In this document: piece after piece, positions 17,563-19,276 of the stretch
How positions within the stretch are numbered: the first letter of the stretch is position 1
How the letters are laid out: every line of letters begins with the position of its first letter
From: Chloroflexota bacterium
GTDB taxonomy: Bacteria > Chloroflexota > UBA11872
DNA length: 64,000 bases
Assembly (NCBI GenBank): GCA_965219705.1
Contig: OZ244789.1
Location: forward strand, 2,339,429 to 2,403,428
Reading direction: 5' to 3'
Notes under the pieces: model-generated
Told to the model about the DNA's origin: nothing
Databases searched by the model: none
Seen by the model: the letters and a program-made list of their open reading frames with translations, nothing else
Position numbers and translations under genes: made by a program

Positions 17563-17640
17563 CTCTGTGCGGATGTAATGGTGGAACCGGCAGTGGCCCG
17601 ATGATACCGTACAAAAGGCGAACGACAGGTAGGAAGGTAC

Positions 17641-18540
17641 GTGGACGAGTTCTCGCATCTCTATGAGGCCAGCGGCGATGGCCTGCCGGTCTCGGACTAC
17701 CGACAGCACACGTTGCAGAAACTTGGGACTGTGCGCTACTACCTCGAAGCATTAGATGCTGCGTGCAAGCGCGCCAAGCCCTTCGGGGGATGGGCGTTTG
17801 TGGACACGTTTGCCGGACCAGGCCTCGTGCAAGTTCGGGACACCCAGCGGTACTTCGAAGGATCAGCCTTGATCGGGCTTCGAAGTGGGGCCTCCGTCGT
17901 CCACGCCGTTGAATTGCAGGAGGCCAGAGTCAGTGCCCTGAGGCAGCGTGCGAAGGATCGCGGCCTCGGTGCGGCTCTTCGGACGCATGTGGGGGACGCC
18001 AACTCGATCGCCCCGGACATCATCGCCAAGATTCCACCATTGACGCCAGTGTTCGTACTGCAGGACCCCGAGGGCATGGAGCTCAAATGGTCCAATGTCA
18101 AGGCTGTTGCGAGGGCCAACAGTGGGCGGCGCAGACGAAAGCCCGAGCAGCTCATTAACTTCAGCGATGGGGTCCTGAGGCTGTTCTGGACGAGTCAAGC
18201 ACTCACGCCAGAAATGGAAGACACCCTTAACGGCTACTTTGGGAGTTCTGCTTGGCGCGATATCGTCGACGATCGAGGCGCAGGTCGCTTGGAGTCAGGA
18301 CAGTCAATTAGAGCAGCGGTGAACCTCTACAAGCGCCGACTACGGGATGACGCCGGGTATTCGTACGTGATCGATTGTGAGATTCGTCGCGACCAAGTGA
18401 CGCGTGGTCAGCGTGCCTATCATCTGGTCTTTGCTAGCGACCACGACGCCGCTCCCCGAATCATGAGAGACGCCTTTGCGAAGGTGCATGTCGGCCAGAG
18501 TGTGTTCACTGGCATGCGGCAGGCGAATCTCGATGAGTAG
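17641..18540 (+). CDS. tcmP: three-Cys-motif partner protein TcmP-like (methyltransferase-fold-like, function unknown)
   Basis: GTG start preceded by AGGAAGG. Motifs FVDTFAGPG (aa 53-61) and VFVLQDPEG (aa 137-145) are present. The gene lies immediately upstream of, and overlaps, a Gp37/Gp68-family gene, which is how the family is defined. Confidence 0.7.
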   Translation: MDEFSHLYEASGDGLPVSDYRQHTLQKLGTVRYYLEALDAACKRAKPFGGWAFVDTFAGPGLVQVRDTQRYFEGSALIGLRSGASVVHAVELQEARVSALRQRAKDRGLGAALRTHVGDANSIAPDIIAKIPPLTPVFVLQDPEGMELKWSNVKAVARANSGRRRRKPEQLINFSDGVLRLFWTSQALTPEMEDTLNGYFGSSAWRDIVDDRGAGRLESGQSIRAAVNLYKRRLRDDAGYSYVIDCEIRRDQVTRGQRAYHLVFASDHDAAPRIMRDAFAKVHVGQSVFTGMRQANLDE

Positions 18541-19255
18541 CGCAAGCCGCATTGAGTGGACTGATTCGACTTGGAATCCGGTTACGGGATGCACCCGCAT
18601 GAGCCCGGGGTGCGACAACTGCTACGCCGAGCGAATGGCGAAGCGGCTGCAGGCGATGGGGAATCCCCGATATACGAACGGGTTTGAGCCGACGCTGCAT
18701 TGGGACAAGGTGTCCGAGCCGCTCAAGTGGCGGCAGCCGCGTCGCATCTTCGTCAACAGCATGAGCGACTTGTTCCACGAGGCGGTTCCGGCGACCTTCG
18801 TGCGCGCAGTCTTTGACACGATGGCAGCCGCCCACTGGCACGAATTCCAGATTCTGACGAAGCGTGCTCGGCGGTTGCCCAAGATTGCTGGAGATCTCCA
18901 GTGGCCGCCCAATGTCTGGCTGGGCGTATCGGTTGAATCCCGGGAATACGCCTGGCGTGCGGACTACTTGCGGGGTGTGCCGGCCGCTGTGCGGTTCTTG
19001 TCGGTCGAGCCGCTCGTGGGGCCAGTCGGAATGCTGGACTTGGCCGCAATCGACTGGGTCATCGTGGGAGGCGAGAGCGGACCCGGCGCTCGGCTGATGG
19101 ACGTGCAGTGGGCGCGTGCGGTTCGCGATCAGTGCGTGGCCGCATCCGTCCCGTTCTTCTTCAAGCAGTGGGGCGGTGTGCGCAAACACCGCACCGGCCG
19201 CACGCTCGACGGCCGCACGTGGGATGAGTTTCCCGTGGCGGCGGCAAGCAACTAA
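18533..19255 (+). CDS. phage Gp37/Gp68 family (DUF5131) three-Cys protein
   Basis: The N-terminus [30 protein letters not shown] (C-x6-C-x2-C), [24 protein letters not shown] and PFFFKQWGG are family hallmarks. The ATG at 18533 overlaps the tcmP stop by 8 nt (ATGAGTAG). Confidence 0.8.
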   Translation: [240 protein letters not shown]

Positions 19256-19276
19256 GCGCCGAGCACCCGGTCGGTG

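Follow-up and report, generated by a model that had tools for sequence, protein, structure and literature searches.

The 64,000-nucleotide (nt) stretch of DNA analyzed here, hereafter the window, comes from a bacterium of the Chloroflexota (contig OZ244789.1, positions 2,339,429 to 2,403,428) and carries a compact locus of two genes, tcmP and a gene of the DUF5131 family. The alignments presented below indicate that in this lineage tcmP has been exchanged on its own, between a near-constant DUF5131 gene and constant flanks. An earlier note on this DNA, made from the letters alone, had singled out the pair as a candidate for an uncharacterized nucleic-acid modification or defense module. The features of the two genes are as follows (SAM, S-adenosylmethionine; ORF, open reading frame; aa, amino acids):

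17641-18540, plus strand: tcmP (ORF A), GTG start, 299 aa, short-form three-Cys-motif partner protein
17797-17823, plus strand: TcmP motif I, FVDTFAGPG (aa 53-61), predicted SAM-binding glycine loop, aligning with YLDTHAGAG of RlmJ
18049-18075, plus strand: TcmP beta-4 and motif IV equivalent, VFVLQDPEG (aa 137-145), aligning with LIDPPYE of RlmJ
18533-19255, plus strand: DUF5131 gene (ORF B), phage Gp37-Gp68 family, ATG start, 240 aa, three Cys
18533-18540, plus strand: 8-nt overlap ATGAGTAG, with the ATG of the DUF5131 gene (18533-18535) inside the end of tcmP, whose TAG is at 18538-18540
18590-18622, plus strand: DUF5131 Cys triad C20-x6-C27-x2-C30, presumed [4Fe-4S] ligands
19067-19177, plus strand: DUF5131 C-terminal motifs GGESG (19067-19081) and PFFFKQWGG (19151-19177), invariant

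The gene coordinates, the overlap and the motifs quoted in the earlier note (FVDTFAGPG, VFVLQDPEG, C-x6-C-x2-C, GGESG and PFFFKQWGG) are all found where it had placed them, and the overlap, judged by its layout, is one of translational coupling. Both starts are supported by the N-termini of homologues, which read MDEFSHL... in the case of ORF A and MxxxSxIEW... in that of ORF B, and in six related loci the position of the tcmP GTG is occupied by a start codon as well (GTG, TTG or ATG). The family calls were likewise borne out by searches with hidden Markov models (HMMs): ORF A matches TIGR04474 (TcmP) over model positions 1-263 of 263 with 124.8 bits (cut-off 53; E 5.7e-36), a Pfam search giving no match for it, and ORF B matches PF07505 over model positions 2-243 of 243 with 342.6 bits (gathering threshold 28.9; E 1.6e-102) as well as PHROG 2045, a family of unknown function. 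A defense-system finder also recognizes the pair, as the two adjacent proteins match both components of the PADLOC system PDC-M41 (ORF A to PDC-M41A, E 1.3e-10; ORF B to PDC-M41B, E 7.7e-112, and to PDC-M30B too) and thus represent the same module. Since it is already catalogued as PDC-M41, the pair is not a new discovery.

A scan of genome contigs with TcmP patterns gave four loci, and the closest relatives belong to the Chloroflexota. The gene order of the window is common to L001, L172, L173, L174, and L179, i.e., pyridine-nucleotide oxidoreductase, modABC, TcmP, DUF5131, LLM, VTT/DedA, RidA, and amidohydrolase. Even where ModC is only 58-59% identical (L175 and L178) the pair still follows modABC; the sole differing context is that of L177, where it lies near a PhdYeFM/PIN pair and UvrB, so that the pair is found after modABC in seven out of eight Chloroflexota loci. 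Because this slot after modC is conserved, the pair cannot be regarded as a recent island in this lineage. A link with molybdate transport as a general function was considered and rejected, the modABC association being absent outside the Chloroflexota clade. Genes of PhdYeFM/PIN-type toxin-antitoxin systems were observed 1-3 kb downstream of the pair in L177 (10881-11596) and L175 (12225-12908), both comparatively distant Chloroflexota relatives.

Within this fixed slot the four compared proteins are very unequally conserved, as the following percentages of identity illustrate:

Window versus L179: ModC 85%, DUF5131 88%, LLM 90%, TcmP 51%
L173 versus L174: ModC 99%, DUF5131 91%, TcmP 72% (LLM not compared; practically no difference in the right flank either)

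At the nucleotide level, identity amounts to 78-92% in the flanks and 81-86% in the DUF5131 gene and drops, precisely over tcmP, to 57-59%. For the window and L179, the nonsynonymous divergence (dN) of TcmP is 0.47 and its synonymous divergence (dS) is saturated, versus a dS of 0.4-0.6 in the flanks. With the alleles of L175 and L177, the TcmP of L179 shares 68-69% identity, although the ModC of L175 is only 57% identical and L177 has none. Since TcmP is diverged between near-identical flanks and is closer to alleles of distant genomes, we conclude from these alignments that TcmP alone has been replaced by recombination and that the slot is a hotspot, the pair being, on the same comparison, the most variable segment of the region in this lineage. 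The region to the right of the pair (window positions 19400-21400, i.e., LLM, VTT, and RidA) shares 94-100% of its nucleotides with L173 and L174, whereas for the left flank (modABC) the figure is 69-92%, a contrast that points to a recombination boundary at or near the pair. The variation of TcmP is concentrated in the surface helices (residues 92-135), in a helical insert (181-225), and in the C-terminal tail, and the motif-bearing strands are conserved. Two irregularities were noted among the syntenic loci. In L173, syntenic in other respects, an insertion sequence encoding a DDE transposase (10195-11148) separates the LLM gene from DUF5131 just downstream of the pair. In L172 a 1-nt insertion near codon 92 (9150-9200) splits DUF5131, which in the remainder shares 94% identity with the window protein; this was not counted as decay, an assembly error being as likely as a very recent inactivation.

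With a near-constant DUF5131 next to an exchangeable TcmP, the locus may be read as a conflict module that consists of two genes, is self-contained, and targets DNA; TcmP would provide variable specificity and DUF5131 conserved catalysis. We favor this reading tentatively, with a confidence that falls a little short of even, and weigh it below against the alternatives that the individual lines of evidence bring up.

The surroundings of the pair in the window agree with what the earlier note had described, i.e., a compact unit between modC and a convergent LLM gene, with a locally lower guanine-plus-cytosine (GC) content and without an integrase. The end of modC is at 17562, and no integrase was found within ~8 kb on either side. 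The features concerned are:

17610-17623, plus strand: element in the modC-tcmP gap, TAnnAn hexamer (TACAAA) followed by GGCGAAC, from a 7-locus Chloroflexota alignment
17631-17637, plus strand: Shine-Dalgarno-like AGGAAGG, 3 nt 5' of the tcmP GTG
17500-19000, no strand: low-GC, codon-atypical block, strongest over tcmP
19277-20359, minus strand: convergent Bac_luciferase/LLM gene, its Pfam label taken from the syntenic loci

In 500-nt windows the GC content is 0.576-0.626 across ~17500-19000 vs. 0.64-0.71 in the flanks; by whole gene it is 0.597 for tcmP and 0.640 for DUF5131, with 0.67 in each 10-kb flank. At third codon positions the values are 0.68 for tcmP, 0.78 for DUF5131, and 0.81-0.94 for eight neighboring genes. 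The stretch of low GC is also the stretch in which nucleotide identity to relatives is low. In the gap between modC and tcmP, the TA, A, and CGAAC of the gap element are invariant across the seven Chloroflexota loci despite the divergence of the remaining gap (the hexamer reads TACTAT in L179 and TATGAT in L175), so that this element is possibly the pair's own -10 promoter element or part of its 5' leader. Because a promoter scan found nothing, this promoter idea is a lead only; the consensus scan for promoters and terminators, which returned none, is in itself uninformative for a high-GC Chloroflexota genome. Scans of the whole window with Rfam and ARAGORN gave no RNA gene besides a tRNA-Gln (CTG) at 55084-55156, which lies 36 kb from the pair and is unrelated to it.

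The AlphaFold2 (AF2) model of TcmP (predicted local distance difference test score, pLDDT, 82; predicted template modeling score, pTM, 0.84) has the seven-strand topology of class I methyltransferases with a helical insert after beta-5 (residues 176-237). A Foldseek search with this model gave 527 hits in the PDB with E <=0.001; among the 50 that are listed, every one is a SAM-dependent methyltransferase or a relative of such an enzyme, and RlmJ of Escherichia coli, the methyltransferase that forms m6A2030 in 23S rRNA, holds the top 13 (E 7.6e-8; template modeling score, TM, 0.5-0.55). The methyltransferase fold suspected in the earlier note is thus recovered in the model as well as in the aligned motifs, while a profile search of the PDB by sequence gave chance matches only. 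A profile alignment of TcmP with RlmJ (hhalign, local mode) is weak (E ~1e-3, probability 20-25%); it brings together an N-terminal R-x-x-G segment, motif I (yvDxFAGpG vs. YLDTHAGAG), GSPLIAL with PGSPLIAR, the beta-2 Glu, GDxN with ADGF, and LDPEG with IDPPYE.

The conservation of these motifs was followed through the family. Motif I has D55 and G61 invariant and G59 conserved in at least 90% of a 64-sequence alignment, and the SAM-pocket motifs D55-x-F-A-G-x-G61, E91, and D119-x-N121 show 89-99% conservation over 134 members. Near-invariant among 134-135 diverse members are K27, Y34, D55, G59, G74-S75, E/D91, N121, D142, T152, E/D169, R180, W205, and Y260 (96-99% for all of these except Y34 and T152). 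For motif IV, D142 is present in 134, P143 in 119, and G145 in 106 out of 135 sequences; position 144 carries E, D, or Q in 82 and an aromatic residue (Y or F) in just 18. The earlier note had compared this motif with a degenerate form of DPP[Y/F]. The likeness stands, since D-P is aligned, but the motif is not merely degenerate: by these counts D-P-[E/D/Q]-G is the family-wide motif IV of TcmP, replacing the DPP[Y/F] of amino-methyltransferases. Because its catalytic-type motifs are conserved family-wide, TcmP would appear to be an enzyme maintained by selection, whose predicted SAM pocket is intact and whose substrate site is unlike that of the RlmJ-type amino-methyltransferases.

Membership of TcmP in the RlmJ or RsmD type is contradicted by its motif IV and by the Pfam models. 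A few TcmP members have weak Pfam matches to RsmD and RlmJ; the RlmJ family PF04378 is matched by one out of 64 relatives (E 0.062) and the window protein does not match it at all. To judge by these scores, TcmP resembles the RlmJ family without being a member. This resemblance, the weak RsmD and RlmJ matches, and the synteny of the pair across one Chloroflexota clade would fit a housekeeping modification of a position in ribosomal or transfer RNA, as carried out by RlmJ, RsmD, or the radical-SAM enzymes RlmN and Cfr. We consider this explanation extremely unlikely, since the distribution of the pair is patchy and element-borne, its codon composition is atypical, and 5,426 E. coli genomes contain no DNA-level match (in a search that detects only at least ~65-70% nucleotide identity). 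A conserved RNA target is, moreover, hard to reconcile with 50% divergence of TcmP between genomes that are ~90% identical elsewhere.

TcmP proteins occur in two size classes, and the longer forms (355-450 aa) carry a C-terminal winged-helix domain, PF22560, which was found in 8 out of 10 tested at E <0.01 (best E 4.4e-17), 5 of these 8 passing the Pfam cut-off. The window TcmP is a short form without this domain. A link with the Gamma-Mobile-Trio, suggested by the Pfam name of PF22560 ("GMT-like wHTH"), was rejected, as the Gamma-Mobile-Trio proteins are recombinases and a StbA-like protein. One protein in the databases (P0264, 552 aa) contains two complete TcmP domains in tandem, which hints that TcmP may act as a dimer. 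The size of the family depends strongly on how it is searched: a word-indexed search gave 24-25 matches, to which a second search with the TcmP profile added almost nothing, and an exhaustive search gave 2,602 clusters at 50% identity. The window's own cluster scores 491 bits, the next one only 186. Family members are ~24-36% identical to the window TcmP, which belongs to a small isolated Chloroflexota subclade of 25 clusters whose next relatives are at most ~35% identical.

DUF5131 is a much more uniform protein. At least 8,000 relatives were found at E 1e-10 or better, and the window protein is 63-70% identical to proteins labeled Actinobacteria, Parageobacillus, Pyrinomonadaceae, NC10, Gammaproteobacteria, and Deltaproteobacteria. 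Over a set of 33 homologues (62-88% identity to it, several phyla included), C20, C27, and C30 are invariant, and so are F208-G215 (FFFKQWGG) and many other residues. Two of the database proteins (P0028 and P0039) look frameshifted. The AF2 model (pLDDT 81) is a beta/alpha barrel whose best PDB matches, at E >=1.5e-3 and TM 0.44-0.50, are the radical-SAM enzymes spore photoproduct lyase, SuiB, and LipA; at the level of the fold this marginal match agrees with the idea of an iron-sulfur, radical-SAM-like protein put forward earlier. Viral structures matched by the model are DUF5131, GP88-domain, and radical-SAM proteins, and a profile search against PDB chains by sequence found no detectable similarity beyond chance matches. 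The protein is significantly similar in sequence to TIGR04471, "radical SAM mobile pair protein A" (70 bits, E 1.7e-19), but, with the cut-off at 355 bits, is not a member. RadicalSAM.org places DUF5131 in a subgroup of its own, Megacluster-5-2, with spore photoproduct lyase under the neighboring label 5-3 (PMC9477430).

That spore photoproduct lyase is the closest solved fold raises the possibility of DNA repair, in which DUF5131 would reverse a lesion by radical chemistry, as this lyase does, and TcmP would find or flip the damaged base. The stable chromosomal position of the pair in the Chloroflexota is consistent with this, and one phage record (H28) has a spore photoproduct lyase annotation on a feature beneath its DUF5131 match; repair enzymes are frequently found in phages. 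We nevertheless regard repair as very unlikely, because the partner is swapped between near-identical genomes, which is unexpected for a repair factor, and the pair is patchy, element-borne, and embedded among restriction genes. The TM to the lyase is, in addition, only ~0.49 and the Cys spacing non-canonical.

To count pairing, loci were anchored on DUF5131 and TcmP was detected with an HMM made from diverse members of its family; genes within 400 nt were taken as adjacent, and the metagenome loci used had both flanks. TcmP adjoins DUF5131 in 31 out of 34 metagenome loci, in 34 out of 65 viral loci from IMG/VR, and in seven out of eight annotated plasmid loci examined, so that the genes are inherited together. 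The commonest arrangement is that of the window, with TcmP upstream on the same strand; TcmP-downstream and convergent orders also occur. Among 897 neighboring genes no third conserved gene recurs, and no fusion of TcmP and DUF5131 was found, the one candidate (P0021) being a truncated chimera. Two TcmP paralogues stand beside one DUF5131 on pSymA of Sinorhizobium meliloti (L181, 1254083-1257317), in the order DUF5131, divergent long TcmP-like gene, and convergent canonical TcmP (SMa2243).

DUF5131 also occurs without TcmP. Solo copies in phages have unrelated flanking genes and lie in early or replication regions, and a Burkholderia cenocepacia plasmid, the eighth of the plasmid loci, carries a divergent solo DUF5131 without TcmP (L185, 7001-8035; 344 aa, 38% identical) within an F-type tra operon, between traF and traH and just after an HNH endonuclease gene. 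These positions, together with the 181 phage and 440 plasmid records of the DUF5131 family, are what would be expected if the two enzymes together hypermodified the DNA of the phage, plasmid, or chromosome encoding it, and so protected it from the restriction enzymes of others, with no restriction function of its own; the module contains no nuclease, and a methyltransferase fold next to a radical-SAM-like fold suits modification chemistry. Such hypermodification appears to us somewhat unlikely for the pair, as exchange of TcmP alleles in a fixed chromosomal slot is ill-suited to blanket protection and the chromosomal copy has long been retained in a free-living lineage. The occurrence of paired copies beside complete restriction systems was also considered here and fits either reading.

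A different partner of DUF5131 was met in L171 (815-1942), where PDC-M30A, a protein of 375 aa with weak similarity to AbiEi, overlaps the start of DUF5131. It is, on sequence comparison, a second partner family unrelated to TcmP; PDC-M30 has been reported in 32 out of 100 strains of Pseudomonas aeruginosa (PMC10855318). The AbiEi-like partner would suit an abortive-infection system, in which TcmP would sense a phage component and DUF5131 would direct radical chemistry at a nucleotide or RNA, for example by forming viperin-like chain terminators, and so would the combination of a fast-changing partner with a very conserved enzyme (63-70% identity across phyla), i.e., a sensor that varies and an effector whose target is a universal small molecule. 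A radical-SAM defense is, indeed, known in the prokaryotic viperins. This sensor-effector arrangement is nonetheless distinctly unlikely in our view, because TcmP keeps catalytic-looking motifs family-wide and frequently has a winged-helix domain, and because the fold closest to DUF5131 is that of a DNA enzyme and not of viperin.

Beyond the Chloroflexota the pair keeps company with restriction and integration genes. The largest clusters of neighbors are Type III Mod, serine integrases, Type I HsdM, CI/S24 repressors, Type III Res, and tyrosine integrases. When the immediate neighbors of the pair were taken from 10 loci (20 genes in all), seven of them, spread over 6 loci, gave strong PADLOC defense matches, namely to a Type IV restriction enzyme, Type III Mod, Type III Res, a Type I specificity subunit, an OLD/AriA-like ATPase, RmrA, and a homing-endonuclease-like protein. 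This count is indicative only, since these 10 loci were hand-picked from 20 eligible ones and one of them, L129, was known beforehand to hold a Type III Mod. On the Leptospira plasmid p74 the order is Type ISP enzyme, TcmP, and DUF5131; on a Rhodococcus plasmid DUF5131 and TcmP adjoin a DUF262 gene, an EcoRI-family methyltransferase, and an integrase; and Pseudomonas and Stutzerimonas plasmids have the order integrase, DUF5131, and TcmP. In the Gordonia phage Fairfaxidum the pair is flanked by the integrase on one side and the immunity repressor on the other, the region in which temperate actinophages carry defense genes expressed in the lysogen. In S. meliloti the pair adjoins the validated defense gene hna, with which tcmP (SMa2243) is reported to be co-regulated (PMC12445080). 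The defense and mobile context envisaged in the earlier note is therefore real for relatives elsewhere but not for the window copy, which sits in its fixed slot after modC.

In the reading that we favor, a DNA-targeting conflict module, DUF5131 would be the conserved catalytic subunit, a small barrel related to radical-SAM enzymes in which the three Cys hold a [4Fe-4S] cluster, and it would be predicted to bind this cluster and to cleave SAM. TcmP would be the variable subunit, with RlmJ-like SAM binding, that selects and binds the nucleic-acid target, probably in addition transferring a group from SAM. We infer that TcmP binds both SAM and DNA and that DNA is the substrate; the link of the pair with DNA is drawn from the winged-helix domain PF22560 in long-form TcmPs and from the basic character of both window proteins (isoelectric points 9.0 and 9.4). 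The two proteins would cooperate physically and act jointly on DNA, either marking the DNA of their own host or chemically altering foreign DNA, with an anti-phage effect and discrimination between self and non-self as the presumed outcome. Exchange of a TcmP allele would then change the specificity, as does exchange of the specificity subunit in restriction-modification systems. One elaboration would be an immunity resembling restriction-modification whose effector is a radical-SAM enzyme instead of a nuclease: TcmP alleles would set the DNA specificity and mark self, and DUF5131, recruited by TcmP, would damage or irreversibly alter unmarked incoming DNA by radical chemistry. We think this elaboration unlikely; if it were true, the solo phage copies would be offensive or counter-defense versions of the same chemistry.

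Several observations weigh against a DNA-targeting conflict module. DUF5131 can work without TcmP, since many phages and a tra operon of one plasmid have it by itself. No nuclease or other effector domain is recognizable in either protein in searches of Pfam, NCBIfam, PADLOC, and PHROG, and TcmP lacks the motif IV aromatic residue with which amino-methyltransferases hold a flipped base. The fold match of DUF5131 to radical-SAM enzymes is marginal (E 1.5e-3, TM ~0.49), and its C-x6-C-x2-C departs from the canonical radical-SAM spacing C-x3-C-x2-C; variant spacings occur, however, among accepted radical-SAM members. TcmP is under purifying selection overall (dN/dS 0.16-0.24), and is therefore predicted to be functional. 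The window copy lies outside a defense island and has kept the same chromosomal slot across deep divergence, which is unusual for defense genes, and the defense-flank count stems from loci selected by hand. The PDC families are themselves phage defense candidates, proposed by guilt-by-embedding and unvalidated (PMC10855318). Finally, searches of the literature on TcmP or DUF5131 under all names tried gave incidental mentions only and no functional study; with no solved structure found by sequence either, the earlier statement that no biochemical function is known continues to hold.

The locus itself will not surprise a specialist. DUF5131 is listed as a radical-SAM subgroup and is large, and solving the function of the pair would assign a role to thousands of hypothetical genes in defense islands, prophages, and plasmids and could add a new chemistry to the conflict between phage and host, or a new DNA modification. 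The compact 1.6-kb short form in the window, with its natural TcmP swaps against a near-constant DUF5131 and constant flanks, offers a ready-made set of constructs for the question whether TcmP sets specificity.

In comparison with known systems, the locus has the same two adjacent components as PDC-M41, although the window copy is not itself embedded among defense genes. It passes both curated cut-offs of TIGR04474 and PF07505 and has the adjacency that defines them, these being annotation families. The TIGR04471 proteins are likewise encoded by a paired gene on mobile elements, e.g., on a Parabacteroides plasmid (H113), but their partner protein differs and the window DUF5131 scores far below their cut-off. 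To the best of our knowledge, viperins are the only other type of defense built on a radical-SAM enzyme; they belong to another radical-SAM subgroup, are not among the top structural matches of DUF5131, act on free nucleotides, and need no methyltransferase-like partner. Spore photoproduct lyase, the closest solved fold to DUF5131, is ~100 residues longer and differs from the C-x6-C-x2-C spacing. With RlmJ and RsmD, TcmP has in common the N-terminal extension, motif I (DxxAGxG), GSPLIA, the acidic residue of beta-2, the Asp of motif III, and the D-P of motif IV; it lacks the helical insert that RlmJ has after motif I, has its own insert after beta-5, and is encoded by element-borne, hypervariable genes. 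With Type I and Type III restriction-modification systems, which it often adjoins, the pair shares the combination of a conserved catalytic part with a swappable, fast-diverging part of methyltransferase fold; it differs from them in having no nuclease, helicase, or separate specificity subunit, and DNA methylation and restriction are at most predicted for it. New here are the predicted folds of the two proteins, RlmJ-like in the one and spore-photoproduct-lyase-like in the other, the DP[E/D/Q]G motif that TcmP shows family-wide, its long forms with a winged helix, and its natural swaps; together they make the function of this pair experimentally approachable.

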